Virus record (IMG/VR): IMGVR_UViG_3300048074_000120
Coordinates: 96,001 to 160,000 of that record
Length of the DNA: 64,000 bases
DNA from: a virus
Direction: 5' to 3' (one strand)
Shown here: positions 13,996-61,012 of the stretch, piece by piece
Layout: each line of letters opens with the position of its first letter
Position numbering within the stretch: position 1 is the first letter of the stretch
Made by a program: the position numbers and the translations under genes
The notes under the pieces: model-generated
What the model was told of the DNA's origin: nothing
Databases searched by the model: none
What the model saw: the letters and a program-made list of their open reading frames with translations, nothing else

Positions 13996-14022
13996 CAAGA
14001 ACACTGCAAATTCGGGAATAAG
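13996..14022 (+). promoter_or_regulatory. Repeated phage promoter motif, copy 1
   Basis: CAAGAACACTGCAAATT-CGGGAATAAG, then AGAAGGAG and ATG 14043. Confidence 0.7.
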
Positions 14023-14042
14023 ATAGATAGAAGGAGAAGACC

Positions 14043-14945
14043 ATGACTACCAAGCTTTTATCGATTGCGTTCGCATTGATTGTTACAGCTTGCAGTGGAC
14101 AAGCCTTCGAGAATTCAGCCGTGTCAGAGCCAGCTGCCGCAGGAACTTCAACCATTGAAAGTACAAGCGCGCCTATGGCTACCGGCGGATCCTCGAGCAT
14201 TGCCACAACCACGCAGGCTACAGGGGGAAACACGTGGGCAACAACAACCTCAAGCACCGGTGGCGAATCGGCCACGGGTGGCACAACCAACCTCATTTCC
14301 GCAACCGGCGGGCGCTCAAGCGTCTCTACAACGGGCGCAACTGGCGGCGCTGGAACAACTGGAGGAATGAAGGCCACAGGCGGATCGCCGGCAACCGGCG
14401 GAACAACTGCCAAAGCCGCCACTGGCGGATCCAACGGATCAGGCGGAAGTACTTTCTCGGCAACCGGCGGGAAGAACTCCACGGGAGGCTCCTCTGCAAC
14501 GGGCCACACCTGCAACCAGCTATACCCGGCTTGCTCGACGGTTTGCGACAAGTCTCAGATCACCAACTGCAAGTACATCAGCGCTGGCGCAACCGATCTC
14601 ATCGACAGCGACTGCAATGCCTTCTGGGACGCCTTCTGCACCGGCTCGGCTGGCACAGGAGGAGCGGCTGGGACTGGCGGATCACCTTCGACGGGTGGCT
14701 CATCGGCAACCGGCGGATCATCTGCCACTGCTGGTGGAAACCTCTCAACCGGCGGGAACCAAGCCACGGGTGGTTCAGCACAGAGTACCACGCTGTCCTG
14801 CGAGGCCGCCTCCGCAGATGTCTGCCACAACACCTGCTATGCAGGGGGCATGGCCTGCGATGGTGATGGGGCTCGATACCAAGTCTGCGCCGACTGCCTA
14901 AAGAACTGCTGCATCCAAAACTGCGGCACACATGCAGGTTGTTGA
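14043..14945 (+). CDS. Myxobacterial-type lipoprotein with Gly/Thr/Ser xTGG repeats and Cys-rich domains
   Basis: Lipobox LIVTAC; more than 15 xTGG units; two Cys clusters. Confidence 0.8.
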   Translation: MTTKLLSIAFALIVTACSGQAFENSAVSEPAAAGTSTIESTSAPMATGGSSSIATTTQATGGNTWATTTSSTGGESATGGTTNLISATGGRSSVSTTGATGGAGTTGGMKATGGSPATGGTTAKAATGGSNGSGGSTFSATGGKNSTGGSSATGHTCNQLYPACSTVCDKSQITNCKYISAGATDLIDSDCNAFWDAFCTGSAGTGGAAGTGGSPSTGGSSATGGSSATAGGNLSTGGNQATGGSAQSTTLSCEAASADVCHNTCYAGGMACDGDGARYQVCADCLKNCCIQNCGTHAGC

Positions 14946-14953
14946 GCGTAGGT

Positions 14954-14988
14954 AGAAGAACTAGCCCAAGGCTGGTTCTTCTTTAGCC
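14954..14988 (+). terminator. Intrinsic terminator with TTAGCC tail
   Basis: AGAAGAACTAGCC-CAA-GGCTGGTTCTTCT-TTAGCC. Confidence 0.7.
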
Positions 14989-14993
14989 ACTTG

Positions 14994-15020
14994 AAAATAC
15001 AGCCAATGTTCGGGCACAAG
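14994..15020 (+). promoter_or_regulatory. Repeated promoter motif, degenerate copy 2
   Basis: AAAATACAGCCAATGTT-CGGGCACAAG, then GGAGG and ATG 15039. Confidence 0.45.
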
Positions 15021-15038
15021 AACACTGGAGGTTTCTGC

Positions 15039-15551
15039 ATGAAACTAGTTAGTTGGGAGTTCAAGGCACTATTGATCGCTATGGTCAAATTAGATAGCGG
15101 AGAACTGCTATGTACAACCCAGGCACTATTGAGCGCACTGGGACTAGACCGCAAGCAACTGGAGTGGGTAATGCAAAAGTACCGTGGCAGGTTCAACCCG
15201 CTTAGACCCGAGAAACTAGGGGCTAACGTGTTGGAGTTCCTTCAACTGAATAGGGACACGCTGGGTATAAGACGCGTCAGAAGTGACATGCTGCTGTGGC
15301 CCCTGAAAGACGCCCTGGCCGTAGCCTTCCATGTCCATACGGACTTGGCATGGGAATTCCATCAGGCAGCCATTGAGCTGGTAGAAAAGAACGCGGCAGA
15401 GCGCAGTGTATCTAGGGAAGAATATGACTCCATGCTCTCAAGAATAGCCCTTCTTGAGCAAACTGTACCCGCGCTGCAAAGCATGGCGTCGCTAGCTGGG
15501 TCGAACCTCAGAGCACAGCGAGACACCAAAGCGCTTAGGGCCATGAACTGA
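15039..15551 (+). CDS. Antirepressor/Bro-N-like DNA-binding protein (tentative)
   Basis: ELLCTTQALLSALG..LLWP..DALAVAF..T.LA.EF pattern plus C-terminal coiled coil; SD GGAGG before ATG 15039. Confidence 0.45.
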   Translation: MKLVSWEFKALLIAMVKLDSGELLCTTQALLSALGLDRKQLEWVMQKYRGRFNPLRPEKLGANVLEFLQLNRDTLGIRRVRSDMLLWPLKDALAVAFHVHTDLAWEFHQAAIELVEKNAAERSVSREEYDSMLSRIALLEQTVPALQSMASLAGSNLRAQRDTKALRAMN

Positions 15552-15560
15552 TATCAACTG

Positions 15561-15600
15561 AAAAGACGGAAGTACGTACCCGTCTTTTCTTTAGCCCCTC
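15561..15600 (+). terminator. Intrinsic terminator with TTAGCCCC tail
   Basis: AAAAGACGG-AAGTACGTAC-CCGTCTTTT-CTTTAGCCCCTC. Confidence 0.75.
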
Positions 15601-15601
15601 G

Positions 15602-15628
15602 AAAGAACAACCTCTTTCACGGCATAAG
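15602..15628 (+). promoter_or_regulatory. Repeated promoter motif, degenerate orphan copy 3 (no plus-strand gene follows)
   Basis: AAAGAACAACCTCTTTC-ACGGCATAAG directly after terminator tail. Confidence 0.35.
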
Positions 15629-15751
15629 AGCTACGAGTTGAAAGCATGTAACGCGTTCATCACTTGAAGAAGCGCCGCGTTGTCTCGAAAGAGAAAGTAG
15701 CCACTCAAGTGGAGGCACGCCGCAAGGCGTGCACCATTTCTTAGCGCCTCA

Positions 15752-16408
15752 TCAAGCTTCGAAGCGCGCCACAGCGGACTTACCCGCTTGCGAGGTGAGC
15801 TCGATGGAAACCAAGATCGCCGTCTCATTCTTGTTGAATCCAGCGGACAGCACCTTGGCTGAAAGCAAACGCTCATCAGGAGGAATCGCCTGATTGCGGC
15901 CCTGCACCTGAACGATCTGACGTGCCGTTGCATCCACGCTCACGATGATGCCAGCAACCACATCTGAGCCTTCGTTGGTCCCTACGCTTTGCCCGAGATG
16001 AACCAAACCGCCTCCGCCTGACTTTGGTGCGAATATATCAGTCCCAGGCGTCGTCAGAAGGAGCTTCAAAAAGAGCTGCATCAACTTCAAGATGCCGCGA
16101 GTCTTACTCGGCGTACGGCCAATACTGAAACGAATGTAGCTCCTTGGGGAAACCAACAGTTTTCGACTGAGCACCGAAATCGAAGTGATAGTTGAATTCA
16201 CCAAAGGCTTCGGAACTTCGGCGAGCAAACGGGTCTTACTGAGCACGACGAAGGAGGGCACAGACACTTGATTCATCAAGACGTCTTCGACCGCGCGAAA
16301 ATCATCCCCGTAGATGTCGAGCGTTCTGACAGGCAGCCTCGGGACAGTCTTGACCTGACTGATCTTCACGAACTCTTGAGGAAATATACATTGAAAATCA
16401 ACTGGCAT
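15752..16408 (-). CDS. Baseplate wedge gp25/GPW-like protein with N-terminal Ig/IPT-like domain
   Basis: C-terminal PDERLLSAKVLSAGFNKNETAILVSIELTSQAG; start moved to ATG 16408. Confidence 0.7.
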   Translation of the reverse strand: MPVDFQCIFPQEFVKISQVKTVPRLPVRTLDIYGDDFRAVEDVLMNQVSVPSFVVLSKTRLLAEVPKPLVNSTITSISVLSRKLLVSPRSYIRFSIGRTPSKTRGILKLMQLFLKLLLTTPGTDIFAPKSGGGGLVHLGQSVGTNEGSDVVAGIIVSVDATARQIVQVQGRNQAIPPDERLLSAKVLSAGFNKNETAILVSIELTSQAGKSAVARFEA

Positions 16409-16412
16409 TTGG

Positions 16413-16910
16413 TTACCCCAGATGCTTCCAACCAATATGCAAAGCATAGTACACTGAGGACAACGCCACGCCATACTTCTTAGCTAAATAAGACAGCGTG
16501 ATTTTTCTCGGAATGTATTCGTCTCTAATTTTCTTCACCACAGCTTCGGTGAGTATAGCATTACCGTGCTGCTCACCATGCACATGAACAGTTCCACTCA
16601 CGTGGCGCCCTTTGGCCACTTTGTCCCGCATATTGTCTAAAGGAGTGCCCTCAAATAGATGACCAGGATTGCAACACGAAGGACGATCGCAATGATGGAG
16701 TACTTGTAATTTCCCTAAGTATCCCTTCTCGCTCAGCCAGGCTACCCGATGCGCACGCATCGACTTGATCTTCGTACTTACACCGAAGACCCCATAGCCA
16801 TCCTTGTCCACTGCCCCTTTCCAAAGCCAACAGCGGGTCTCTAGGATCGGATGTACTGGCCCATTCTTATCGACGTGCGACCAGAATCGAGCTAACGTTC
16901 TCTCGTCCAT
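16413..16910 (-). CDS. HNH homing endonuclease with C-terminal HTH (paralog A)
   Basis: RFWSHVDK..CWLWKG..GYG..RAHRVAW..VLHHCDRPSCCNPGHLFEGT..DN. Confidence 0.9.
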   Translation of the reverse strand: MDERTLARFWSHVDKNGPVHPILETRCWLWKGAVDKDGYGVFGVSTKIKSMRAHRVAWLSEKGYLGKLQVLHHCDRPSCCNPGHLFEGTPLDNMRDKVAKGRHVSGTVHVHGEQHGNAILTEAVVKKIRDEYIPRKITLSYLAKKYGVALSSVYYALHIGWKHLG

Positions 16911-17774: not shown

Positions 17775-17786
17775 CTTAGCTCGCTT

Positions 17787-27668: not shown

Positions 27669-27933
27669 TCACTTAGTAGTTTGCTGCCCTTGAGGATTCT
27701 CAGACGACTTTTTTGATCGTCTGCGCGGGGGTGCTTTTGTTCTGGGCTTTTGCTTGAAGTGCCCGTCCTCGATCAGCTCCTTGACGAGAGGGGGCGCATG
27801 CTTTGATGCGATTGGCGCTCCGTCTTTTCCCCACCTGATGCTGAAAACTCTGCCTGCCATTTGCCTCCAGGTAAGCCGCCATGCCCATGGTAAGGGTTGG
27901 GTCATCGCTTACAACGAGTTGAATTCGAACCAT
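27669..27933 (-). CDS. One or two small hypothetical proteins (overlapping frames)
   Basis: ORFs 27700-27933 and 27669-27905 each look coding over only part of their length. Confidence 0.4.
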
Positions 27934-27953
27934 GGTTGCCTCAACTATCGTTC

Positions 27954-28181
27954 TTATCCCTGTCTTCTGGCGATCTCGTCAGCCAGTGCTTGCGGGTCGA
28001 TACTGTAATAGTTGAGCAGGAGCCCGTCTACATGTTCCCAAACGGCGGAGAGCTCGAAGTTGGGATTCTGCTCCATCAACCAGTTGAGAAACTCCTTGAT
28101 GGTCTTCATCGGAAGACGCACCGCGTGCACCTTGGCCAATTGGGGAAACATCTCTGCTGAAAGAGCTGGGTTATCAGTCAT
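27954..28181 (-). CDS. Hypothetical protein
   Basis: SD GGAGGAG; coupled. Confidence 0.65.
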   Translation of the reverse strand: MTDNPALSAEMFPQLAKVHAVRLPMKTIKEFLNWLMEQNPNFELSAVWEHVDGLLLNYYSIDPQALADEIARRQG

Positions 28182-29657: not shown

Positions 29658-29920
29658 TTGGTTCTCCTCTCCTGCAGCGTTGCTGCCTTTTCAATCCCGT
29701 TCTCGAGTAATCGCTTCAACTCCTCCGTGGGGCCACTGAGACTCTTGTCCTTGCCATGGACTAGGGCCAGAGCGTCTGCAACAGCAGTCGCCTCGTCCAT
29801 GGTGAGCGTCACGCTGATAAACACCTGCTCGTAGGGAAGTAGATGGCTGATCATGGTTGAAGCTTCTGCATGTACCAGAACTTTGGCATGAAGTCTTCCT
29901 TCCTGTGCAAAGGACCTCAC
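29654..29920 (-). CDS. Hypothetical protein, first gene of leftward block
   Basis: Directly beside the strand switch. Confidence 0.55.
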   Translation of the reverse strand: MRSFAQEGRLHAKVLVHAEASTMISHLLPYEQVFISVTLTMDEATAVADALALVHGKDKSLSGPTEELKRLLENGIEKAATLQERRTK

Positions 29921-29936
29921 TCACGGCCTTATCTCG

Positions 29937-29963
29937 CAATCCAATTCGTTTTGCAGAGATAAG
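29937..29963 (+). promoter_or_regulatory. Repeated promoter motif, copy 4, overlapping a mirror copy on the minus strand
   Basis: CTTATCTCG-CAATCCAATTCGTTTTG-CAGAGATAAG; SD GGAGG, GTG 29986. Confidence 0.7.
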
Positions 29964-29985
29964 AGACGCGTAGGAGGAAAACACA

Positions 29986-30603
29986 GTGCACCACGCTTTA
30001 GACGATATACCGATCAACGCAACAACCAACGATTTACTCAAGAGGGGACGCTTCAACCTACGCCTACTGGCGGAAGAGCTTGGAGTGTTTGTTGATGAGG
30101 AAGCAAAAAGTTCATTCATGCAGTTAGACAACCAAGGGCAAGCTGAAGTTGTTCGCAATGCCTTACTGAAATCCAGGGGTTTGCCCCCTGTGGAACCCGT
30201 GGACATGCGACAGAAGGTAAGTAATGCCGTCCTGGCTAGGGTCACCAAAATGCGCGCCGATTCATCCGATACGTGGCACCTCTACAAAACTCAACAGAAA
30301 GTTGAATCTGTTAGAGGAGAGCTTGTCAGACAGTACGAGGCGCAACTCAACGCTCTTCGTATAGAAAACTATGGAGGCATTGAGCTTAGGGACAGGGCCC
30401 TCCTTCAGCTTCGCACAGAGTCAAACACGACTTGGGAAGAACTGAATCTTGAACGTGTGAGGCACAAAAAGACGAGCGTAGAGTTGGTACAAGCCAATGC
30501 ATTGCTGTCTGAGCTGCGCGCAAGAATCAGACAGCTGGAACTCCAGGTGCAGAAGCGCGAACGAGCTTCGAAAAGAAAGAAGAAGCCAGCTAGGCGCAAA
30601 TAA
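29986..30603 (+). CDS. Coiled-coil hypothetical protein with basic tail
   Basis: SD GGAGG; follows promoter copy 4. Confidence 0.7.
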   Translation: MHHALDDIPINATTNDLLKRGRFNLRLLAEELGVFVDEEAKSSFMQLDNQGQAEVVRNALLKSRGLPPVEPVDMRQKVSNAVLARVTKMRADSSDTWHLYKTQQKVESVRGELVRQYEAQLNALRIENYGGIELRDRALLQLRTESNTTWEELNLERVRHKKTSVELVQANALLSELRARIRQLELQVQKRERASKRKKKPARRK

Positions 30604-30623
30604 CCTCAAATCTCGGGGATAAG
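30597..30623 (+). promoter_or_regulatory. Repeated promoter motif, copy 5
   Basis: CAAATAACCTCAAATCT-CGGGGATAAG, then AAAGGTAGAGGAGG and ATG 30644. Confidence 0.75.
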
Positions 30624-30643
30624 AAAGGTAGAGGAGGAAACAC

Positions 30644-30982
30644 ATGCTCAAAGCCAATTCAAACGTTGCCATCGATGCCGCTGTTTTCAAGAAGGACACC
30701 ATCCCTCCAGCGAATCCCCAGACCCACATAACAACGCTGGCAGAAGGCTATACGCTCAGCTACGAGATGTACATGGCCCTCAGCAGAATCCCCATCGTGT
30801 ATGGGTCAGAGGACAACACAGCACTCATCTCCAAAGCTGACGCTTGGGCAGACATGGTTGTGCTCGGTGCTGCTCTGCGCGAGCAGAGTCTGCAAAAGCA
30901 AATCGAAGAGCAAGTAATACAACTTGAAGACTTAGAGATACAAGTGGCTGAAAGCGGTCTACGGACGCTCGGCACCTTGTAG
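30644..30982 (+). CDS. Hypothetical protein
   Basis: Promoter, SD and terminator all present. Confidence 0.75.
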   Translation: MLKANSNVAIDAAVFKKDTIPPANPQTHITTLAEGYTLSYEMYMALSRIPIVYGSEDNTALISKADAWADMVVLGAALREQSLQKQIEEQVIQLEDLEIQVAESGLRTLGTL

Positions 30983-30994
30983 TTTTACACTTGG

Positions 30995-31021
30995 GAGAGC
31001 CACACGGCTTTTCCTTAGCCC
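30995..31021 (+). terminator. Intrinsic terminator with TTAGCCC tail
   Basis: GAGAGCC-ACAC-GGCTTTT-CCTTAGCCC. Confidence 0.6.
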
Positions 31022-31029
31022 ACCATCAA

Positions 31030-31250
31030 CCATGCCGCGGGTGTAGACTGGTAGTTGCCGACCAGGCGTACAAAGGCCTCGGAGCATTGGTGCTTCCGGG
31101 GCCTTTTGCTTGGAAGCAACCGGCCCGCTGTATCGAAACATTCAGGGTTCAAGGGGATCGAGGCGTAGAATGGAATCTGCTCAACGTGTGGTCCTTTGCT
31201 GCCCCCGTGTGCGAAGAAAGGCCTCGGTTGGAAACGACCGGGGCCTTTCA
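31030..31250 (+). ncRNA. Candidate structured RNA or leader upstream of the sigma gene
   Basis: Two hairpins sharing the arms AAAGGCCTCGG and CCGGGGCCTTT (31072-31107, 31217-31248) plus smaller hairpins; no convincing ORF. Confidence 0.4.
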
Positions 31251-31260
31251 CTAAGTTGCC

Positions 31261-31839
31261 ATGTGCTCGTTGCACCTCAGTACTCCGGAAGAGCTGTTCA
31301 ACAACTACAAACGGCTTGTCGCCCCTATTGTCAGTCACTACTACAAAAAGCTTGGCGCTAGCGCATCGTACGACGAGCTCTACCAGTGGGGGCTGATCGG
31401 CCTTTGGGATGCCAGCAAGCGCTGGGTGGGTGAGATCGGGGGGTTTTCTTCTTACGCCAAGGGGCGCATCAGTGGGCAGATCATTGACGAGTATCGCGTC
31501 AGCACAAGTTACATTCGACGCCTTGGAAATAGCAAACAGCCCAAGTACGTAAATCTCGATGATGATAATGATGAAGAAAGACCCAACCTCCAGCTAGTTG
31601 CGTGTACACAGCCCCTAGAGCAAGTCATCCATACCCATAGGAACCTGCGACGTCTAAGTGCCGCTTTCTACGAATTGACTGGCAAAGAAATCTGTATCCT
31701 TCTTCTTTTCTACTTCGACGGCATAAAACTCCAAGAGATTGCAGAACAACTCGAACTCAGTGAAGCCCGCATCTGCCAGATCAAGACGGCCGCCATCAAG
31801 AAGCTCAAGCAGGCTACTTGCCTCGAGATTGATTTCTAG
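31261..31839 (+). CDS. Sigma-70 family factor, FliA/WhiG-like
   Basis: Region 2 DELYQWGLIGLWDASKRW..FSSYAKGRISGQIIDEYR; region 4 LTGKE..LFYFDGIKLQEIAEQLELSEARICQIKTAAIKKL. Confidence 0.9.
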   Translation: MCSLHLSTPEELFNNYKRLVAPIVSHYYKKLGASASYDELYQWGLIGLWDASKRWVGEIGGFSSYAKGRISGQIIDEYRVSTSYIRRLGNSKQPKYVNLDDDNDEERPNLQLVACTQPLEQVIHTHRNLRRLSAAFYELTGKEICILLLFYFDGIKLQEIAEQLELSEARICQIKTAAIKKLKQATCLEIDF

Positions 31840-31897
31840 CTACCTTGTCCTTGCCAGCTGGGCTCTTCAACCAGTCACCAGCCAGCGGAAGGACAAT

Positions 31898-32485
31898 ATG
31901 GAAACACCTAACAAGATAGCTGAGAACTACCAAGACAGCCCCATTCTCACGCACGGGACACGGCCTCTACTTGAACCCAGCAAGATCGAATGGGCTTCTT
32001 CTATGGACAGCCAAGTTGCTATACAGCTTACACATCTGGAAGCCAGCCACGAAAGAATTATCGAATTTCGTGTGCTCAAATACCACCTTGAAGGGAAAAA
32101 CCCCGAACACGAAGACTTCTATTCAGCAAGTACCCCATACAGAGCCATCGAGCACACTGGTAAGACCCTCGAAGAAGCTATCGGCGCTTTGCTGTTCTCC
32201 TATGCATGTCTATCCCGCGACGGAGCGTTCAATCCCCGCTTGCCATCGGAGCAAGGCGACCCACCTATCCAACATGTTATCCATATCCTGACAGAGAGAT
32301 TGAACTGGCATGTTGAGCGTCGACACCAGCACATGACAGAGGCTAGCATTGAGCCTGCGGGAGCACCTAACGCCCCGTATACAGGAAACCGAGACCAAGC
32401 GTTGTCGGCAACTAAAGACGACAACAAGATCATCGCAGCACTGGCCACAGCCATTGCGGCGCTCGGTCGCGTTGATGAGCTGTAA
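31898..32485 (+). CDS. Hypothetical protein
   Basis: SD AAGGA before ATG 31898. Confidence 0.65.
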   Translation: METPNKIAENYQDSPILTHGTRPLLEPSKIEWASSMDSQVAIQLTHLEASHERIIEFRVLKYHLEGKNPEHEDFYSASTPYRAIEHTGKTLEEAIGALLFSYACLSRDGAFNPRLPSEQGDPPIQHVIHILTERLNWHVERRHQHMTEASIEPAGAPNAPYTGNRDQALSATKDDNKIIAALATAIAALGRVDEL

Positions 32486-32535
32486 TTGAACAAAAGGCAC
32501 TTCCTCCGGTGATAACAACGCTGGAGGAAGTAGCC

Positions 32536-32760
32536 ATGCAGGCAATCAGCAACAGCACGCGTTGGGCATTCAATGTAGCCACACTCAATGACCTTCGCTG
32601 GCAACCAGAAAAGTCGAGTTGGACTCGTGCTTACGAGCAGCGGGTGTATTGGGGGACAGTGGAACTTCATCAAAAGATCGCCAATGGTGAAGGCAACGCC
32701 GTTGACCCAGCAGAGCCAGTGAGCGCACAGATGCTCCGCGAGATAGTCAAAGTCGCGTAA
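32536..32760 (+). CDS. Hypothetical protein
   Basis: SD GGAGG before ATG 32536. Confidence 0.65.
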   Translation: MQAISNSTRWAFNVATLNDLRWQPEKSSWTRAYEQRVYWGTVELHQKIANGEGNAVDPAEPVSAQMLREIVKVA

Positions 32761-32774
32761 TTTTCGGAGATAAG
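32748..32774 (+). promoter_or_regulatory. Repeated promoter motif, copy 6
   Basis: CAAAGTCGCGTAATTTT-CGGAGATAAG. Confidence 0.7.
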
Positions 32775-32793
32775 AGGGATGGAGGTAGCCAAC

Positions 32794-33084
32794 ATGATGA
32801 CAGTTTCCGATTCAAGGAAAACCATCGAGAACGCCATCCATAGTTTGCAGCGGTCTCTCGATGTACTGCTTTTGGCAGACGGCACGGTGATGGACACTCC
32901 CCTTGCCCAAAACGCGGCAACGATCCAAGAAGCAGCAGACGCCATTGCCGACGAAGCCACATTCATCGAACTCACCGAATCCCCTCGGGGCATCCTCTGC
33001 GCGCTGAGGGTGTCTCTCAAGAGAAAGCTGCTGCAGCGAAAGAAGCTGAAGCGCCGAACCATCTTTGTCACCGATCGTGAGTAA
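32794..33084 (+). CDS. Hypothetical protein
   Basis: Promoter copy 6 and SD GGAGG. Confidence 0.7.
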   Translation: MMTVSDSRKTIENAIHSLQRSLDVLLLADGTVMDTPLAQNAATIQEAADAIADEATFIELTESPRGILCALRVSLKRKLLQRKKLKRRTIFVTDRE

Positions 33085-33108
33085 TTTCCCCTCCAATTCG
33101 GGGATAAG
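33082..33108 (+). promoter_or_regulatory. Repeated promoter motif, copy 7
   Basis: TAATTTCCCCTCCAATT-CGGGGATAAG. Confidence 0.7.
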
Positions 33109-33126
33109 AAGAATGGAGGTACTCAC

Positions 33127-33399
33127 ATGTGTAATTCCAGCCAAAGTTGTTCAGCCACAAAGATCTCAGACAAAGCATTAGCCGATGGCATCGATGCAAT
33201 CTCGTCTGAGCTAGCCATGGCGAAGAGCAACATCCCGTTGGTGACGCAGCAGGAGCAGAGGGAAGAATTCATGGCAGCGCTGCACGAGCTCTTGCTCGCC
33301 GTCCAAGACGTCAACGTTGGCATCAATCAAGCCAATGACGCGTACGTTGCGGAGTTCGGGGAAAAAGAGCCCGACACGCTCAACGCGCTACAGCACTAA
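33127..33399 (+). CDS. Helical hypothetical protein
   Basis: Promoter copy 7, SD GGAGG, terminator. Confidence 0.7.
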   Translation: MCNSSQSCSATKISDKALADGIDAISSELAMAKSNIPLVTQQEQREEFMAALHELLLAVQDVNVGINQANDAYVAEFGEKEPDTLNALQH

Positions 33400-33409
33400 G
33401 TGAAAACGA

Positions 33410-33442
33410 GAAAATGGGTCACACCATTTTTTCGTAGCTCCG
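33410..33442 (+). terminator. Intrinsic terminator with TAGCTCCG tail
   Basis: AAAATGG-GTCACA-CCATTTT-TTCGTAGCTCCG. Confidence 0.6.
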
Positions 33443-33469
33443 CAAAGTCGGGTGGTTACAAGGAATAAG
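33443..33469 (+). promoter_or_regulatory. Repeated promoter motif, copy 8
   Basis: CAAAGTCGGGTGGTTAC-AAGGAATAAG, then AAGGGTAGAAGGAG. Confidence 0.65.
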
Positions 33470-33517
33470 AAGGGTAGAAGGAGATGATGCAAGCCAACTG
33501 GCGTGCATCGAAACACC

Positions 33518-33814
33518 ATGAAACAAACCCTACCCATCGCCACAGCAACGTTGATGTCTCTCTCCTGGGAAAAGCCACTCAACTTGGCCACTGGAAAAGG
33601 CTATGGCACCAACGAGTACAGCTCTCGAGATCGATACATCTACCGTAGACGCCCCAGTGCGTCAGCGACGCCGACACGACAGGAAGCTTCGGCATTTGAG
33701 TTCCACAGAGCCCCGTACGGACTTGCCTACAACTACAGGACGTGGACCGATGTTCCTGAGAGTTTGTGGGAGCCTGTTGACGCGTATGGCATGCCCGCAC
33801 GGCGCGCTGGCTAA
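33518..33814 (+). CDS. Hypothetical protein (alternative 54-aa frame from ATG 33484)
   Basis: Follows promoter copy 8; frame choice uncertain. Confidence 0.5.
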   Translation: MKQTLPIATATLMSLSWEKPLNLATGKGYGTNEYSSRDRYIYRRRPSASATPTRQEASAFEFHRAPYGLAYNYRTWTDVPESLWEPVDAYGMPARRAG

Positions 33815-33825
33815 ACATAAAATGA

Positions 33826-33861
33826 ACGGAGGGGTGTACCCTGACAGTACATCCCCTCCGT
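33826..33861. terminator. Strong hairpin between convergent genes
   Basis: ACGGAGGGGTGTAC / GTACATCCCCTCCGT; U-rich tail on the minus strand. Confidence 0.65.
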
Positions 33862-33862
33862 C

Positions 33863-33927
33863 GGTGCAGTTTCAGGAATCGAACCTGAGCCTCATCCGGC
33901 AGGGATTGGGCGTACCACTACAACTCC
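33863..33927 (-). pseudogene. tRNA-like remnant (perfect T-arm, reduced D-arm)
   Basis: TCAGG-TTCGATT-CCTGA T-arm; 5' GGAGTT pairs imperfectly with AACTGC; TAGTGGTA D-loop trace; about 65 nt, no clean anticodon arm or CCA. Confidence 0.4.
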
Positions 33928-34149
33928 TTTTTCTAGCGCAGCCTTGGCAGCGTCCATGGCTTCATCCTTGTTGTCTTTGCTGCCTGCTTCGAGCAGCATC
34001 TGACCGTTCCAGATCGCCCAATTATAACTCGTGCCGTCAAACGTTCCCTCGACCTTGGCGTGTAGCTGCGTACCTTTTACGGAGCCATACCAGCAGTCCA
34101 CATGCTGCCACTCGAGTTTGCGAGGAAATTCAACAACCTTGCCGGACAT
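33892..34149 (-). CDS. Small hypothetical protein
   Basis: Protein-like composition; fills the gap between plus-strand cassettes. Confidence 0.6.
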   Translation of the reverse strand: MSGKVVEFPRKLEWQHVDCWYGSVKGTQLHAKVEGTFDGTSYNWAIWNGQMLLEAGSKDNKDEAMDAAKAALEKGVVVVRPIPAG

Positions 34150-34153
34150 GATC

Positions 34154-34180
34154 TAAAGCCTAGCAGTTTTCAGGCATAAG
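34154..34180 (+). promoter_or_regulatory. Repeated promoter motif, copy 9
   Basis: TAAAGCCTAGCAGTTTT-CAGGCATAAG, then GGAGG. Confidence 0.6.
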
Positions 34181-34184
34181 CACA

Positions 34185-35393
34185 TTGGAGGTCACCCTGT
34201 CAAAGAAAGACCAAAAGGGGCGTGTGCACCGGAAGGAACAGAAGCTGAAAAAGAGCAGAGAAAAGCTGCGACAACGAGCAGCCACAGAACAGCTGCTGCA
34301 CCCACAAAAGTTACCGATGAATGAATCGATGCTTCCAGTTGGGATCCTGTTTTGGTATTTCGTCAGGTGTCTCTGGTTGGGTAAGGAAAACCCAAGGATG
34401 GGTGAATACAAGGATCATATTGAAAAGCTCATCACCAGCAACGACGCCATTGGCAGCGCAGCACAATTTGCGAGTGCTGCTTCCTTCATGATGAAGGAAC
34501 TACACCTAAGCTCAGAGTTTGTGGGAAAACTTGTCACATTTTTACAGCTATCTCTTCGACCAGAGAGCAGCAACATAAAGCAGCATAGTATTTTTGCTGA
34601 CTGGTATGACAATGGTATGCCAGTGATCGAGGTGGGGCACAAGCTTGCGGCGTCATACATGGCCACTCGGATCACAAAGGAGATGACTGCGAAAGCGCAT
34701 TTACCTTTCTCATCTTTCAAGATTCAAGTCCCGGCGGGGCTACTACAACTAACGGATTGCCTAACAGGCAAACCCGCGAACGTGACTGGACTGTACGTAG
34801 GCATTATGCTTGTGATGAGCACAGAACTCCGAGGCAAAGTCGAGGCATTGAGTGCAGAGGAAATTGCGCAGCAGTCTGGGCAACGCCCCTACATGCTATT
34901 AGTCAGCGACACAGGTACCTCGGCATGGCGGTCTTCATTCGATGCGGAAGAGGTGTTTACCTCTGCCGAAGTACCAGATGGAAAGTCTGCCGGACTGGAT
35001 ATGTCGCTGGAAGATCTGGACAAGCGGGCAATGATTTTGGCTGGGAGACTAGCAGCCAGCGTAATACTGCACATCAATGGCGGGGAAGGGTGCTCGAGAG
35101 TCGGCACTGGCCATGAGAACTTCGATAGCACAACGAACAGGCGCAAATCTCCTCTCCCAACGCATAGAAGATTTGTAATCACCAGAGATGTGCAACACGA
35201 TATGCGTGAAGCCATACGAGACTTCATGTCTGGCAACAGAAAAACTCTCAGCGTGCAAACCATGGTTACTGGGCACTGGCGGTGGCAGCCCTTCGGAGCA
35301 GGTAGAACTCAGGTGAAACACATCTTCATTGAGCCATTCTGGAGAGGCCCAGAAGATGCCCCTATCGCACTACGCAGACATAAACTTGAGTAA
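34185..35393 (+). CDS. Hypothetical protein, 402 aa, with conserved-looking C-terminal motif
   Basis: VTGHWRWQPFG..VKHIFIEPFWRGPEDAP; start codon uncertain. Confidence 0.75.
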   Translation: MEVTLSKKDQKGRVHRKEQKLKKSREKLRQRAATEQLLHPQKLPMNESMLPVGILFWYFVRCLWLGKENPRMGEYKDHIEKLITSNDAIGSAAQFASAASFMMKELHLSSEFVGKLVTFLQLSLRPESSNIKQHSIFADWYDNGMPVIEVGHKLAASYMATRITKEMTAKAHLPFSSFKIQVPAGLLQLTDCLTGKPANVTGLYVGIMLVMSTELRGKVEALSAEEIAQQSGQRPYMLLVSDTGTSAWRSSFDAEEVFTSAEVPDGKSAGLDMSLEDLDKRAMILAGRLAASVILHINGGEGCSRVGTGHENFDSTTNRRKSPLPTHRRFVITRDVQHDMREAIRDFMSGNRKTLSVQTMVTGHWRWQPFGAGRTQVKHIFIEPFWRGPEDAPIALRRHKLE

Positions 35394-35407
35394 TTTTCGG
35401 GGATAAG
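35381..35407 (+). promoter_or_regulatory. Repeated promoter motif, copy 10
   Basis: TAAACTTGAGTAATTTT-CGGGGATAAG, then AAAGATAGAAGGAGG. Confidence 0.75.
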
Positions 35408-35434
35408 AAAGATAGAAGGAGGTACAAATCAAGC

Positions 35435-36001
35435 ATGACGCTTGCTGCATTTTACTCAGATCCACACATCGGGCATGCCAACATCATCAAATACTGCGAG
35501 AGGCCTTTCACCGATGTGGAGGAAATGAACCAAACCCTGGTGCAGCGCTACAACGCCAAGATCGATCGCAAGGACGTTGTCCTGTGGCTGGGGGATTGCT
35601 TCTTCAAAGGAGACCCCACCCGTTATCGAGACACCCTCCTGCAAATGAACGGTACCAAAATCCTACTAGTTGGAAACCACGACGGCTCCATGCCGGCTAT
35701 GGCCAACCTTGGTTTTGCCTTGGTGCTGCAGGAAGCAGTACTCAATATTCGAGGGGTCACTTGCAGAGTGAATCACTACCCCTACGAGGCCATACCTGTC
35801 TACGAGAAGCCTGATAAGTTTGCCGCGCTTCGCCCGCGCAAGCATCCAGGAGAGATTCTCATTCACGGACACAACCACGCCAAAGGCCCTGTCAACGGCA
35901 ACCAAATCAACGTGGGCGTGGACGCTTGGGATTTTGGCCCAGCCATGTACTACGAAGTTGCCGACTTAGTAGATCGTATCAAGCAAAGGACAACTACATG
36001 A
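35435..36001 (+). CDS. Calcineurin-like metallophosphoesterase
   Basis: SDPHIGH, LGD, GNHD, HYP, HGHNH. Confidence 0.9.
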   Translation: MTLAAFYSDPHIGHANIIKYCERPFTDVEEMNQTLVQRYNAKIDRKDVVLWLGDCFFKGDPTRYRDTLLQMNGTKILLVGNHDGSMPAMANLGFALVLQEAVLNIRGVTCRVNHYPYEAIPVYEKPDKFAALRPRKHPGEILIHGHNHAKGPVNGNQINVGVDAWDFGPAMYYEVADLVDRIKQRTTT

Positions 36002-40101: not shown

Positions 40102-40132
40102 GAACGGTGCCTGCGACCGTTTCTTAGCTCCG
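40102..40132 (+). terminator. Intrinsic terminator with TTAGCTCCG tail
   Basis: AACGGT-GCCTGCG-ACCGTT-TCTTAGCTCCG. Confidence 0.6.
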
Positions 40133-40159
40133 CAATCCACCGCAAGAATCGGGGATAAG
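40133..40159 (+). promoter_or_regulatory. Repeated promoter motif, copy 11
   Basis: CAATCCACCGCAAGAAT-CGGGGATAAG, then AAAGGTAGAAGGAG. Confidence 0.75.
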
Positions 40160-40182
40160 AAAGGTAGAAGGAGATGTGTAAC

Positions 40183-40713
40183 ATGAAGCGCAACTACAAG
40201 TTTTTCGTCCTCTGTGCGGTGCTGCTCACTTTGGCCAACTTGAGCTTTAGCGTGTACGCCCGCTCGCTCTCCCTCAAGCCTTCCCTCGTGTGCGAGAACC
40301 TCCAAAAAGCAGGCCTCGTTACCAAGTGCCAAGAAGGAGCCCCTTGGGCCTTCACGGTCACCAGGTACACGGCCCAATGGGAGTTCGAGCCGACCGGTGC
40401 TGAGGTCTTCAAGTGCTACACCGTCACAGACGGCCTTACGCACGTGCCCTGCCTGTTTAGGGGCACCGTGGCTCAGTTTGCCAGCGACGCCGACCTCGAG
40501 GCAGGCCTGGCTCAGATTCGCCAGCAGAACTACCGCAAGCACAGTGTGGCAGATTTGCAGGCAAACGTTACCCGGGCGGACACCACGCTCGAGCAGTACG
40601 ACTTCGAGGTATTGCGTGCAGAGCACCTGCTCGTCATCTTCCCCATCACGGAGAACCTTGGCGACATGCAACGTGCTCTGTTGCAAATGAATGGCAGCTT
40701 CGAAGGGCTGTGA
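40183..40713 (+). CDS. Secreted/periplasmic hypothetical protein
   Basis: N-terminal signal peptide; promoter and SD. Confidence 0.7.
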   Translation: MKRNYKFFVLCAVLLTLANLSFSVYARSLSLKPSLVCENLQKAGLVTKCQEGAPWAFTVTRYTAQWEFEPTGAEVFKCYTVTDGLTHVPCLFRGTVAQFASDADLEAGLAQIRQQNYRKHSVADLQANVTRADTTLEQYDFEVLRAEHLLVIFPITENLGDMQRALLQMNGSFEGL

Positions 40714-41877: not shown

Positions 41878-41945
41878 CGCGTACTCCTGGCCAATCCTAG
41901 CATGACGCCCCCGTTGATCGGGACCTCTCTAGTCCATCAACTAGG

Positions 41946-41972
41946 CAAATTGCCGGTCATTTCAGGGATAAG
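41946..41972 (+). promoter_or_regulatory. Repeated promoter motif, copy 12
   Basis: CAAATTGCCGGTCATTT-CAGGGATAAG, then AAGGATAGAAGGAGG. Confidence 0.75.
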
Positions 41973-41993
41973 AAGGATAGAAGGAGGACTGCC

Positions 41994-42263
41994 ATGATCG
42001 GAAACATCACGCCGTCAGAACTGAGGTCAATCAACGTCCTCATGTACTTGCAAAGGATCGCTGGCATCGATGTGAGTTTTGAAGAAGCTATTGAAGGCTG
42101 GAGAGCCCTCAGCGCTGCAGCTCAGGAGCAAATCATCACCGCAGTCGAGACAGCAAAGTTCATCAAGACCAGTTACCAAATGGGGAGGCAGCATGGAAAC
42201 AAGACAAGCCAGACTTTACAAGGAACAACTACGGGAGAGCGCCACAGTACAGACCCTAATTGA
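41994..42263 (+). CDS. Hypothetical protein
   Basis: Promoter copy 12 and SD. Confidence 0.7.
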   Translation: MIGNITPSELRSINVLMYLQRIAGIDVSFEEAIEGWRALSAAAQEQIITAVETAKFIKTSYQMGRQHGNKTSQTLQGTTTGERHSTDPN

Positions 42264-49398: not shown

Positions 49399-50501
49399 TC
49401 ATTGAGAACTCCTATTCGCGTGGGCGTATTTGGTCTTCCCCAATACGCCTCGAAGTTTCTTGATAGCCCGTTGCTCTAGCTGCCTGGCACGCTCTCGAGA
49501 AAATCCGAGCTTTCGACCTAAGTCTGCCAAGCTCAATGGATCATCGCTCATAAGTCGATGCTCCACGATGATTTTCTCACGAGGGTCCAATAGCTCCAGA
49601 GCCTTGCCAACGATTCCGCTGCACGCTGCAGCTTGCTCCTGCAGTTCGATGCGACGCTCCGGCTCTATCTCGTCAGCAGCCAGCGTATCAAGAAGAGGCG
49701 CCGTTCCAAAAGATCTGGCGTCTAGCGATACGTCGTAGCACTCAAGTCTTTGTAATAACCCCTGTACTTGTTCAGGGGGCATATCCATGCGCCGTGTCAG
49801 CAGCTGCTCGATGGCATCTCGATCTTCTCCCACTATGTTTCGAGCCCTGATGAGCTCTCGACGTAGCTTGTATAGATCCTTGCTACGAACGAGTTCTTTA
49901 CCAAGAATGGTGCGGGACTTCTGGATGTATTTCGAGATTGATGCCTTGATCCACCAGGCTGCGTAAGTGACGAAGCGCAGCCAAAGTTGCCCTCGGCAAT
50001 GAGCGCCTCGATGGGATGCCCGCACTTGGGGAATAGGTAAGCAATCTGCACAACATGATGCAAGTGGCAACGAAGAATAAGGTTTCGTGCAGTGATGTCA
50101 CCGTCAACCTTCCATGCATGCCAGAGTTTGAACTCTTCCTCAGCACTCAGCCGATTACGGATGTCAAAGCGGTAATTACCAGCAACACCCGCCTTGGTGA
50201 TGACCGGTGCGGGCTCGGGCCCAATGGGCTCCAGCGCTGGTTTCTTTATGGTCTCAATCTTACCGATGGGCACAAAGCGCGGCTTGCGCTCGATGCTTTC
50301 TACAACTTGCATTTGCACATTCTCACCCCTGCGTCTTGCGTGGTGCGCTTTCATTGCGTCAGATCGGCTGATTTTGCCGACGTATTTGCACAGAGTCTCC
50401 CTGTGCATCCCGGTGACCTTCATGATGTACTGAAGGGAGTAACCGAGCCTTCTTAGCTCCTGTGCTTGTGCCACCTTCGCTGGGCTGGCGTAGTTAGACA
50501 T
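49399..50501 (-). pseudogene. RpoH/sigma32-like sigma factor with N-terminal HTH, split by an internal deletion and frameshift near 49980
   Basis: Frame 1 ends ..RLSAEEEF..GDITARNLI..PIEALIAEGNFG; frame 2 resumes LRFVTYAAWWIKA..DVSLDA..LDPREKIIVEHRL..LADLGRKLGFSRERARQLEQRAIKKLR; about 13 residues of region 2.2-2.3 missing. Confidence 0.8.
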
Positions 50502-57502: not shown

Positions 57503-57510
57503 CTGAACAC

Positions 57511-58634: not shown

Positions 58635-58635
58635 G

Positions 58636-58902
58636 CTACTCTTCTTCCTCGTCTTCCTCCGTATCCTCTTCGTCTTCCTCATCGTCCTCTTCTTCATCGT
58701 AGTCCTCGTCTTCGTCATCAGCGACCTCATCGATGGATACGAGGCTTTCCACGGACACATTCCAGCCGGCGGCTTCAAGGGCTTTGACTTGCGCCGAGCT
58801 TTGCTCCTCAATTTTATCGTCAGAGGCTTCATCATCAACGCTGTCAACGCCCTCGATCTCGAGGATCCGCTGAACCATGTACGTGGCAGAAATTCTTAGC
58901 AT
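58636..58902 (-). CDS. Small protein with long Asp/Glu tail
   Basis: Ends DDEDEDYDEEEDDEEDEEDTEEDEEEE. Confidence 0.7.
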   Translation of the reverse strand: MLRISATYMVQRILEIEGVDSVDDEASDDKIEEQSSAQVKALEAAGWNVSVESLVSIDEVADDEDEDYDEEEDDEEDEEDTEEDEEEE

Positions 58903-58904
58903 GC

Positions 58905-59708
58905 TTAGTCCTTTGGCCTTTGCCTAGTAGTTCCCAGCGTAATGCCAGCGGCTACCCCGGGCTTGTTCTTGTCGCGCTCGTACGCGTACACGTTGCCGTT
59001 CTTGGTGAAGATGCCACATTCGCCGCAGTCAAAAGCTTTTGCGGCAAGTGCGTCTTCCTCTTCGTCGAATGCATCTAGCAAGTCGAGCTTCGTCTTGCTA
59101 TGCACGGACTCTGCCCACTCTCCACAGCGTGGGCAGTATTGGCCGTCAGTAGCCCAGTCTGTTGTGATCGAGGCCTCGAACTGCACGATGGTGCCTGCGT
59201 CGTACCTGCGCTGGATCACAGCCTTAGGCATGTTGCGCAGTTGAGTAGGGGCTGTGCTGTATTGAAGCCTCGAGCGAATGGCTTGCATGCGGTCGTTGTG
59301 CGCCGCCACAAGAAAGTCGTGGTCAATGGAAAGCGTAGCCAGGTGCTCAATGGCCGCATCGATGCCGCGTTCAAGCTCGCCGTCGGTTAGCTCCACTGAT
59401 TTATGTGAGTCTGCGGGTAGATCTCCTTCAGCTAAATTCAAAGCACGCGACAACAGCCACAGCGGCGCCGCAGCTGGTCCAAAGAACTTTGGTCCACTGA
59501 GAAAGACCAAAGCCTTGTCGTAGGCTGCCAGAAGCAGCTTGGTGTATGAGTTTTGGCCAGGCTGAATAGGCCTGGTGCCAACACAAATGGGGAAGCGCGT
59601 GCAGCCGTAAAAGGCGCCGCGACCCACATAACTGCGCTCAACCATGGGCACACCACACTCAGGGCACCTGATGTGGTCTATTGGCTGAGGCCTACGCTTG
59701 TAAGCCAT
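58905..59708 (-). CDS. Protein with topoisomerase C4-type Zn finger and a second Zn ribbon
   Basis: CPECGVPMVER..FYGCTRFPIC..TRPI; CPRC..CGEC. Confidence 0.75.
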   Translation of the reverse strand: MAYKRRPQPIDHIRCPECGVPMVERSYVGRGAFYGCTRFPICVGTRPIQPGQNSYTKLLLAAYDKALVFLSGPKFFGPAAAPLWLLSRALNLAEGDLPADSHKSVELTDGELERGIDAAIEHLATLSIDHDFLVAAHNDRMQAIRSRLQYSTAPTQLRNMPKAVIQRRYDAGTIVQFEASITTDWATDGQYCPRCGEWAESVHSKTKLDLLDAFDEEEDALAAKAFDCGECGIFTKNGNVYAYERDKNKPGVAAGITLGTTRQRPKD

Positions 59709-59721
59709 CTGTTGCTATCAA

Positions 59722-60042
59722 CTAGTGCGTGGACTGTAGCTCGTAGGGGACTACGCCATCGTTCTCTTCAAGCTCGATGGCTCGTTGAACAACCTGCGTT
59801 GGAAGCCCAGAGGGCCAGCTGAGTGCGCCGAGTTGTTCAAGCTCTCGGACTACGCCCAAGAGATCTCTGTACGTGGCCACAGCCCCTTTGTGATCTCCAG
59901 CAAGCTTGAGCTGCATGCCTGTCTGTTGCAGATGTTGTGCCCGCTCAACGAGTACGGATATTTCCTCTAGGCTAGCCCCAAATCGAAGTACCCGTCGTCC
60001 AGAAGTTGCTCGGTTGCCCAACATGCAATCAGTAATAGACAT
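59722..60042 (-). CDS. Helical hypothetical protein, start uncertain
   Basis: Protein-like C-terminal 95 aa. Confidence 0.5.
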   Translation of the reverse strand: MSITDCMLGNRATSGRRVLRFGASLEEISVLVERAQHLQQTGMQLKLAGDHKGAVATYRDLLGVVRELEQLGALSWPSGLPTQVVQRAIELEENDGVVPYELQSTH

Positions 60043-60073
60043 AGAACACCTGAGATGAGTTTGAGAATATTCT

Positions 60074-60250
60074 TCACGATGTGTGCACTCCAGGGAATTT
60101 TGGTAGAGGTGGCGCGCCGGGGATTGCAATCGATGAATCGCCGGGTGGCGGGTATGACGACGTAGGGGGATCGCAGGGGAGGGTGTCTCTGAGTTCTTGC
60201 GTGCCTGCCAATAACTGCCTGTCACTAGAACTAGTATTCCGTGTCTCCAT
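60074..60250 (-). CDS. 58-aa Pro-rich ORF (absent from ORF track)
   Basis: GAGGA SD; METRNTSSSDRQLLAGTQELRDTLPCDPP.. Confidence 0.3.
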   Translation of the reverse strand: METRNTSSSDRQLLAGTQELRDTLPCDPPTSSYPPPGDSSIAIPGAPPLPKFPGVHTS

Positions 60251-60572
60251 CTGATCCTCGAATCACGTAGGCGTCAGCCAACTCCTTTGCTTGTGAAAGC
60301 AAGGTGAGTGTAGCCTCTCGACCCATGCAAAGTTGATAGTTCACAATCACGGCCTTTTGCACGAGGCGTATTGCCGCAAGTTGAACTACTGATGGCTCCA
60401 AGTTCGAACAGAGGAGCTCCATTATCCGTTGTGATAGGTCGAGAGTCCCGTCTTCCCGTACGTCGTCCGCTGCGGATTTGCGCTCCCATTGCGCAGGTTT
60501 CGGATCTACGAGGTCGCCCATTAGTTTCCTTATGCCACAAAAGTCCCCAACTATGCATGCTTGCATGTCCAC
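60231..60572 (-). CDS. Hypothetical protein
   Basis: Helical C-terminal half. Confidence 0.55.
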   Translation of the reverse strand: MDMQACIVGDFCGIRKLMGDLVDPKPAQWERKSAADDVREDGTLDLSQRIMELLCSNLEPSVVQLAAIRLVQKAVIVNYQLCMGREATLTLLSQAKELADAYVIRGSDGDTEY

Positions 60573-60637
60573 TGGATGGGCGTTCCGATCTCTTATGCAT
60601 ACGTACGGGGCGTAGACCTCGAAGTCTATCAGAGTTG

Positions 60638-60664
60638 CAAGCGATTTGAAAAGTCAGGGATAAG
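60638..60664 (+). promoter_or_regulatory. Repeated promoter motif, copy 13
   Basis: CAAGCGATTTGAAAAGT-CAGGGATAAG, then AGAAGGAGG and ATG. Confidence 0.75.
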
Positions 60665-60685
60665 AATTACGAGAAGGAGGCGACA

Positions 60686-60943
60686 ATGATTAGAGTTTTC
60701 GATGTTGATGAGCCAACCACAGAGATAGAACTACATCCGGACACCGTCGTGCGAACGATTGACATCAAGCACTACCTCACGACAGGTATACTTCGCTTCA
60801 TCGGTGAACCAAAGCCAGCTCAACAGGTTGCGCTGAGCGACGCCATGGTGGTTGAGACCGGGTTCGAGGAAGACCACGGCGCCACCGTGGTGATTCGAGT
60901 GGCTTCGAGAGAGGAACGCGGACGCTTAGCGCGCATGCACTGA
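60686..60943 (+). CDS. Hypothetical protein
   Basis: Promoter, SD and terminator all present. Confidence 0.7.
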   Translation: MIRVFDVDEPTTEIELHPDTVVRTIDIKHYLTTGILRFIGEPKPAQQVALSDAMVVETGFEEDHGATVVIRVASREERGRLARMH

Positions 60944-60954
60944 TCGTAAGGATG

Positions 60955-60985
60955 AACTGGCCCTGCCGGTTTTTCCTTAGCCCCT
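60955..60985 (+). terminator. Intrinsic terminator with TTAGCCCC tail
   Basis: AACTGG-CCCTG-CCGGTT-TTTCCTTAGCCCCT. Confidence 0.6.
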
Positions 60986-61012
60986 CAATTGCGCTTCAAA
61001 GTACGGGATAAG
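60986..61012 (+). promoter_or_regulatory. Repeated promoter motif, copy 14
   Basis: CAATTGCGCTTCAAAGT-ACGGGATAAG, then AGAAGGAG and ATG 61033. Confidence 0.7.

Follow-up and report, generated by a model that had tools for sequence, protein, structure and literature searches.

The canonical sigma-28 factors (FliA, SigD and WhiG) recognize the promoter consensus TAAA-N15-GCCGATAA, and promoters of the Bacillus SigB/SigF type follow GTTTAA-N12-14-GGGTAT. Several phage sigma factors, such as SPO1 gp28 and gp33/34, T4 gp55 and phiEco32 gp36, have promoter classes of their own. In T4-type phages, Arbiol et al. reportedly described in 2010 promoter-early stem-loop (PeSL) cassettes that lie in hyperplastic regions. 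The SPO1 cascade is mentioned in PMC13401047, and a review of jumbo phages states that phages with multisubunit RNA polymerases lack sigma factors, and vice versa (PMC7824862). Here we analyze a two-part DNA motif that recurs upstream of plus-strand genes in a stretch of 64,000 nucleotides (nt), hereafter called the window, which comprises bases 96001-160000 of the 188,971-base-pair (bp) phage record IMGVR_UViG_3300048074_000120 in IMG/VR. The record represents the 189-kb genome of an uncultivated phage and is referred to as G000. An earlier note, made from the letters of the window, had read the motif as a dedicated phage promoter class. Literature searches did not reveal any paper on this phage clade, on its polymerase or on the promoter. 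The motif heads about two dozen gene cassettes of G000 and is retained across relatives. Its anatomy points to a sigma-dependent promoter, and a divergent sigma factor that is core to the clade is a candidate for its reader.

The motif and its copies

The motif is composed of GCAA, 14 free bases and CrGGGATAAG. In the window, the strict pattern YAA-N14-MRGRNATAAG has 11 matches on the plus strand and none on the minus strand, compared with a mean of 0.08 and a maximum of 1 in dinucleotide shuffles. The element is present at all 14 coordinates listed in the earlier note, each time on the plus strand and between genes. The copies at 60986, 14994 and 15602 each deviate from the strict pattern by one letter; all three, including the last two, which had been called weaker, score as strong in the matrix scan (Table 1).

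A weight matrix was built from the copies, covering the stretch from -19 to +11 as numbered from the first base of the 10-mer, and was applied to the whole of G000, of which 234 rough gene calls cover 85%. About a quarter of these calls (61 of 234) lie on the plus strand. The scan yields 22 copies with scores of at least 21.9, followed by a next best site at 16.2, and no score above 12 is reached in reversed or complemented control sequences. An equal frequency inside open reading frames (ORFs) and on both strands, which the earlier note had named as an argument against a promoter, is not what the scan gives: all 22 copies are intergenic and on the plus strand, in the orientation of the downstream gene. 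Fourteen of them fall inside the window, and the other eight are located at genome positions 60540, 60731, 64741, 182266, 182463, 186808, 187024 and 187960.

A Shine-Dalgarno (SD) sequence and a start codon had been noted within about 20-30 nt of every strong copy, which is true of most copies and not of all. They are found within 60 nt, together with an ORF of at least 40 amino acids (aa), at 15 of 23 sites; no such ORF directly follows the copies at window 15602 and at genome 60540, 182266 and 182463. In 7 of the 22 copies, a terminator-like hairpin with a T-tract lies 14-20 nt upstream. The minus strand was proposed to be free of the motif apart from a mirror copy at 29.93 kb. No strong copy is in fact found on this strand anywhere in the genome, but weak copies occur at window 27962 and genome 170572, both of which are kept with better scores in the closest relative, G001 (17.3, with a better -35 block, for the counterpart of the window copy). 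The mirror copy is present with a spacer that is one base longer, and because of this shift its matrix score stays below 9. A search for a promoter shared by minus-strand genes returned only a few TATAC-type boxes, and a generic scan for sigma-70 promoters and terminators over window 29-43 kb performed no better than on shuffles.

Table 1. Promoter copies, sigma genes and related features. Positions are window coordinates unless stated; each promoter copy extends from the G of the -35 block to the predicted start.
Feature	Position	Strand	Matrix score	Remarks
Promoter copy	13995..14029	+	29.3	ORF 14043-14945; syntenic in G001
Promoter copy	14993..15027	+	27.6	AAA for YAA, ACAAG for ATAAG; follows terminator hairpin; heads ORF 15039-15551; syntenic in G001
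Promoter copy	15601..15635	+	23.7	After terminator hairpin; no ORF; terminator ~100 nt downstream
Weak copy	27946..27980	-	13.7	Good -10 and SD, poor -35; precedes ORF 27700-27933
Mirror copy	29928..29955	-		GCAA-N15-GCGAGATAAG; precedes minus-strand operon starting near 29920
Promoter copy	29936..29970	+	22.4	ORF 29986-30603; overlaps divergent mirror copy
Promoter copy	30596..30630	+	36.2	Best score; ORF 30644-30982, then terminator ~31000-31020
FliA/WhiG-like sigma, 192 aa	31261..31839	+		Accessory gene
Promoter copy	32747..32781	+	29.6	ORF 32779-33084
Promoter copy	33081..33115	+	30.6	ORF 33127-33399
Promoter copy	33442..33476	+	25.8	After terminator hairpin; ORF 33484 or 33603 to 34151
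Promoter copy	34153..34187	+	23.7	ORF ending 35393, start codon uncertain; G001 counterpart
Promoter copy	35380..35414	+	31.1	Most sigma-28-like (TAAA-N14-GGGGATAA); heads gene run, first gene metallophosphatase 35435-36001
Promoter copy	40132..40166	+	30.6	After terminator hairpin; ORF 40174-40713
Promoter copy	41945..41979	+	33.4	ORF 41994-42263; syntenic in G001
RpoH-like sigma	49399..50070	-		Accessory gene
Promoter copy	60637..60671	+	29.4	ORF 60686-60943; syntenic in G001
Promoter copy	60985..61019	+	21.9	After terminator hairpin; helicase gene 61033-62355 and ORF 62357-63253
Core sigma, 253 aa	genome 168251-169012 (locus L009:1033-1794)	-		Outside window
CCTATCAG examples in G011	G011 118816, 182728	+		Orientation as analysed
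CCTATCAG examples in G011	G011 43088, 25948	-		Orientation as analysed
Palindrome GCTCGAGC examples	25154, 40587, 41676, 54012

Promoter anatomy and predicted start

The information profile of the 22 copies displays two conserved blocks, G-C-A-A-a at -18 to -14 and C-r-G-G-G-A-T-A-A-G-A at 0 to +10 relative to the 10-mer. The spacer between them carries near zero bits, has an A/T-rich end and is constant in length. The earlier observation that YAA stands at a fixed 17-nt offset from the 10-mer is borne out by an A at -16 and at -15 in all 22 copies, which were in part picked by eye.

Downstream of the 10-mer, position +15 is a pyrimidine and position +16 a purine in all 23 G000 sites, and both positions lie outside the search matrix. 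The genome-wide frequency of a pyrimidine-purine step is 0.25. The step holds in nearly all sites of seven relatives, including G001 (16/16), G002 (18/19), G005 (15/16), G008 (12/12) and G009 (14/14). It is located about 8 nt after GATAA, where the earlier note had predicted transcription to begin. The invariant purine, 16 nt downstream of the 10-mer's first base, would represent +1, with the pyrimidine at -1. When this position is taken as the start, GATAAG would occupy -12 to -7 as the -10 hexamer, with the usual A at -11 and GG at -14/-13, and GCAA would fall at -35 to -32, within a -35 element GCAA(r) that would span -35 to -31 and be separated from the hexamer by a 17-bp sequence-free spacer. 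This -35/-10 geometry with a 17-bp spacer is standard for sigma-70-family holoenzymes. Since the SD sequence lies within a few bases of the predicted start, leaders would be about 20-25 nt long. Each copy would start a small plus-strand transcription unit, mostly an ORFan cassette, and the hairpin that terminates the preceding unit often lies immediately upstream. The assignment of the element as a clade-specific, bipartite promoter of the sigma-70 family is well supported by these sequence features, from which we also infer the transcription start.

Conservation across relatives

Relatives were reached through a search for the exact motif-plus-SD pattern and through polymerase alignment in IMG/VR. 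With the polymerase as marker, 71 IMG/VR loci were found, together with ten whole genomes; metagenome contigs were fetched by identity, and 26-kb stretches of them were used. No relatives were recovered when IMG/VR was scanned with the FliA-like sigma or the helicase as a single protein query. Nothing similar was found among GenBank phages at the DNA level, and the sigma search in GenBank phages gave a single weak match.

The closest relative, G001 (186,879 bp), was found by the search in IMG/VR for the exact -10 block and SD sequence. It is syntenic with G000, with about 74% nucleotide identity, and keeps at least 16 plus-sense copies, many of them at the same places. In window 29900-33800 (genome 125.9-129.8 kb), G000 contains a 3.9-kb block without a G001 counterpart, where about 0.8 kb stands instead. 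This block holds five promoter copies, ORFans and the FliA-like sigma gene, and is a hypervariable cassette array.

G000 encodes a fused beta-beta' RNA polymerase of 2135 aa. More than 500 homologues occur in metagenomes, many on contigs of 185-200 kb, and the enzyme belongs to the core of the clade. Its gene is separated from a divergent MoxR-ATPase/VWA operon by a stretch in which an orthologous copy of the motif is present in 55 of 69 IMG/VR loci, which correspond to 44 distinct sequences with polymerase identities of about 40-91%. These copies keep GCAAG (in 34-43 of the 44 distinct copies), GG.ATAAGA and TG at +15/+16, while 13 spacer positions are without information. At the level of whole genomes, the motif pattern matches 5-24 times in 18 of 20 related genomes (0-2 in controls), in agreement with the matrix scan, and it is stable across phages of 52-63% G+C and down to about 40% polymerase identity. 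Such a phylogenetic footprint of a two-block recognition site leaves little room for a reading other than a promoter. The motif is also found at the orthologous site of three polymerase homologues (L264-L266) whose contigs were binned into metagenome-assembled genomes named Myxococcales, Deltaproteobacteria and Anaerolineales, which gives a weak hint to host range.

The one complete genome without the motif belongs to the most distant relative, G011 (IMGVR_UViG_3300049049_000237). G011 carries CCTATCAG at the place of the motif, 8-15 nt before SD sequences and often right after terminator T-tracts. This sequence has apparently taken the place of the -10 block in this lineage.

Candidate readers of the motif

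Three sigma genes are recognizable in G000: a FliA/WhiG-like gene, an RpoH-like gene and a divergent gene for a 253-aa protein. The RpoH-like sigma recurs only in G001 among 19 relatives. In contrast, the 253-aa sigma is found in 17 of them, the two misses being records that are 91% and 88% complete. The best NCBIfam families of the 253-aa protein are SigB/F/G and FliA/WhiG, with matches below the cut-offs (39.8 bits against the SigB/F/G model, whose curated cut-off is 234), and its Pfam matches for regions 2 and 4 are weak. A profile of the protein aligns with regions 2-4 of solved SigA structures, so that regions 2, 3 and 4 are present, and also matches solved FliA (6pmi). Over its full length, the profile matches the 278-residue sigma factor 6pfv (E 2.5e-15), the entry for Streptomyces sigma-WhiG. 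Sigma factors of the WhiG/SigB type read -10 boxes of the GCCGATAA or GGGTAT kind, and the motif block GGGATAAG resembles these boxes.

The motif stands directly upstream of the core sigma gene in G006 and G008; in G000, G001 and two other close relatives, this gene is found two genes downstream of a copy. In G011, where the motif is absent, the core sigma is the most divergent of all (28% identity) and has an altered region 4.2 recognition helix. The clamp-helix region of beta', the main docking site for sigma factors, is retained in the phage polymerase and aligns collinearly with residues 214-356 of bacterial beta'. Based on the phyletic patterns, the contrast with G011 and the retention of the clamp helices, we rank the core 253-aa group-3 sigma (WhiG/SigB/F-like) as the most likely reader of the motif, and put slightly more than even confidence in this assignment. 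The core sigma may dock on the fused beta-beta' polymerase of the phage itself, which would be a plausible partner.

Several points weigh against this assignment. The link between sigma and motif draws on co-conservation in related, non-independent genomes and on one contrasting lineage, G011. The two incomplete records (G016 and G017) contain the motif and give no match to the core sigma. The region 4.2 helix (VSR[LI]K) follows motif density across 73 loci with only a weak trend, and the motif lies directly upstream of the core sigma gene in only 4 of 66 distinct relatives. The results also fit a phage polymerase core and a host core alike. Finally, a host alternative sigma of the sigma-28/WhiG or SigB/F type, acting on host RNA polymerase, could read promoters that the phage copied from a host regulon, as the motif does resemble the promoters of group-3 sigmas. 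We regard this explanation as unlikely. The clade has its own core group-3 sigma and its own polymerase, and the motif is stable over the same wide range of G+C content and polymerase identity given above. For a host sigma-28 in particular, the CC of the box would have to be GG or GA in every copy, and near-consensus TAAA-N15-GCCGATAA sites are not in excess in G000 (12 genome-wide, fewer than the 27 of the control). A host housekeeping sigma fits no better: GATAAG lacks the T at -7, and GCAA replaces TTGACA. Moreover, the polymerase gene has its own, different box of the TAnnnT type.

This box was noted at genome 60470-60500 (locus L025), where GCTATACT precedes the ATG of the polymerase gene by 14-21 nt. 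A TAYNNT box is kept there in most of 61 relatives. It is predicted to be a promoter of a second type that more closely resembles housekeeping -10 boxes, and the difference between the two boxes suggests that the polymerase gene depends on a different factor than the motif reader. General autoregulation of the core sigma gene from the motif was considered and set aside, since the arrangement holds for a minority of relatives only.

Alternatively, the beta-beta' polymerase could recognize the motif alone or with a specificity factor that is unlike sigma. The multisubunit polymerases of phiKZ and AR9 do use non-sigma specificity subunits (PMC7824862), and the polymerase is core to this clade. 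However, the -35/-10 geometry, the 17-bp spacer and the A at -11 follow the pattern of a sigma-70-family holoenzyme, and the clade has a core sigma as well as a polymerase that preserves the clamp-helix docking site, which makes this alternative quite improbable.

The 192-aa FliA-like sigma at 31261-31839, which the earlier note had proposed as the reader, is largely refuted as a general reader by its phyletic pattern. Its best family matches are FliA and FliA/WhiG, its gene is embedded in a motif-rich block, and the motif shares GATAA with sigma-28 boxes. But it has no homologue in G001, which keeps its motif copies, several at the same places, and the gene is part of the 3.9-kb block that G001 lacks. 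Homologues are found in only 2 of 18 further relatives, at 29-30% identity, as opposed to a motif that is present in 18 of 20. The FliA-like and core sigmas have only region 4.2 in common, and a terminator and a structured leader of 240 nt lie between the FliA-like gene and the closest motif copy. That this protein is the reader of the motif is very doubtful; it could act as an additional reader of these promoters in this one phage.

The region upstream of the FliA-like gene (30983-31260, plus strand) contains a terminator, which has the usual tail, and a pair of strong GC-rich hairpins whose arms are nearly identical, and the ATG of the gene is without an SD sequence. This leader looks like a separately regulated, perhaps attenuated one.

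It is hardly credible that the motif is no promoter at all and serves as an RNA-level signal (a processing or translation element tied to the SD sequence) or as a recombination boundary of mobile gene cassettes: the distance between motif and SD sequence is fixed, the terminator tail TTCTTAGCCCC is a near reverse complement of GGGGATAAGAA and the cassettes do lie in variable regions, but an RNA element would have no use for an upstream block set at a fixed distance across a spacer of free sequence, the copies follow terminators and occupy divergent junctions, an Rfam scan of the window gave no match, and the terminator tail stands at a variable distance and accompanies only about a third of the copies.

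With the core sigma as the favoured reader, a further step can be considered, in which the single-chain beta-beta' polymerase, the core sigma and the promoters would form a self-contained system, independent of host RNA polymerase, in hundreds of uncultivated phages of about 190 kb. We put this forward tentatively, as a possibility rather than a probability. The N-terminus of the core sigma contains, ahead of region 2, a conserved signal of the form [DE][FLY]L-x3-5-K-[TEV]-A. This signal resembles that of putative head-internal proteins, and the core sigma may thus be delivered with the virion to start infection.

Other features of the window and genome

In 15601-15752 (plus strand), the promoter copy is followed by an ATG with TAA directly after it, and a strong terminator hairpin with TTTCTTAGC is located about 100 nt downstream. 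The segment may encode a small RNA of about 105 nt, which could run antisense to the terminal part of the convergent minus-strand operon. Its overall fold is only mildly better than that of shuffles (z -1.8). A tRNA scan of the window found nothing.

The terminators of plus-strand cassettes (at 15738, 40121, 42502, 63294 and others) end in TTTCTTAGCC(C/A)C. The tail is biased to the plus strand, both as TT[CT]TTAGC (17 plus, 5 minus) and as TTAGCC[CA]C (18 plus, 4 minus), and near relatives share it. Read as its reverse complement, GGGGCTAAGAA, the tail matches the -10 block GGGGATAAGAA except at the A of -11. It may serve as an element of terminators, mark the boundary of a cassette or represent a dead mirror promoter.

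The overrepresented palindrome GCTCGAGC, often TTGCTCGAGCAA, occurs 26 times genome-wide, always within genes and on either strand. It is unrelated to the motif and may reflect a peptide motif, or a site linked to methylation or restriction. A 202-aa protein noted at genome 44790-44891 (minus strand), together with its paralogues, has a weak match to sigma region 4. The family is multicopy, with eight places in G001 by tblastn, and probably represents homing-endonuclease-like or helix-turn-helix proteins, not sigma factors.

Several motif-headed plus-strand genes, namely 14043-14945, 61033-62355 (helicase) and 62357-63253, score poorly with a codon model that was trained on long minus-strand genes. 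Codon usage or strand composition of these genes differs from that of core genes.

Implications

Together, the blocks, the spacing and the predicted start define this promoter precisely for a large and so far undescribed clade of phages with a size of about 190 kb. The resulting promoter map lets transcription units, candidate small RNAs and cassette boundaries be annotated across these genomes. The protein of experimental interest shifts to the core 253-aa sigma, away from the promoter-adjacent FliA-like sigma. If this sigma does work with the single-chain polymerase, the pair and this promoter would constitute a minimal bacterial-type transcription system, which would be relevant to the evolution of polymerases and attractive as a tool for orthogonal expression.

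Comparison with known promoter systems

The motif shares with sigma-28 promoters a bipartite layout, an A-rich -35 block and a GATAA core that is preceded by G/C bases. This flavour, within a sigma-70-family architecture, is what the earlier note had recognized. The likeness extends to the protein, as the putative reader is a group-3 sigma that matches FliA/WhiG models and 6pmi. In contrast to sigma-28 promoters, the -35 block reads GCAA for TAAA, with a T at its first position in only 4 of 22 copies; the first C of GCCGATAA is replaced by G in 22 of 22 copies and the second by G or A; and a G follows GATAA. The spacer is one nt shorter, as had been claimed, being 14 nt instead of 15 in all strong copies. 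Among the copies, only that at 35381 comes within 2 mismatches of the whole TAAA-N15-GCCGATAA consensus. The targets are phage ORFan cassettes and not motility genes. As three defining features (-35, -10 and spacer) deviate, the motif does not belong to the canonical sigma-28 class.

Like SigB/SigF promoters, the motif has GGG followed by an A/T-rich -10, and SigB/F/G is the best NCBIfam family of the core sigma; the -35 is a different one, the spacer is longer, and GATAAG stands in place of GGGTAT.

The system resembles those of SPO1, T4 and phiEco32 in that a phage-specific, non-housekeeping consensus precedes many genes and the phage encodes its own sigma. Unlike these phages, whose sigmas redirect the host core, the clade also encodes a bacterial-type fused beta-beta' polymerase. 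The arrangement of a stem-loop and a near-identical promoter before small ORFans in variable regions is shared with the PeSL cassettes of T4-type phages. However, the early promoters of those cassettes are host sigma-70 promoters, whereas the consensus here is not sigma-70-like and only 7 of the 22 copies directly follow a hairpin. The motif can safely be classified, from its sequence, as a phage-specific sigma-dependent promoter class with a layout that resembles the T4 promoter-stem-loop cassettes.

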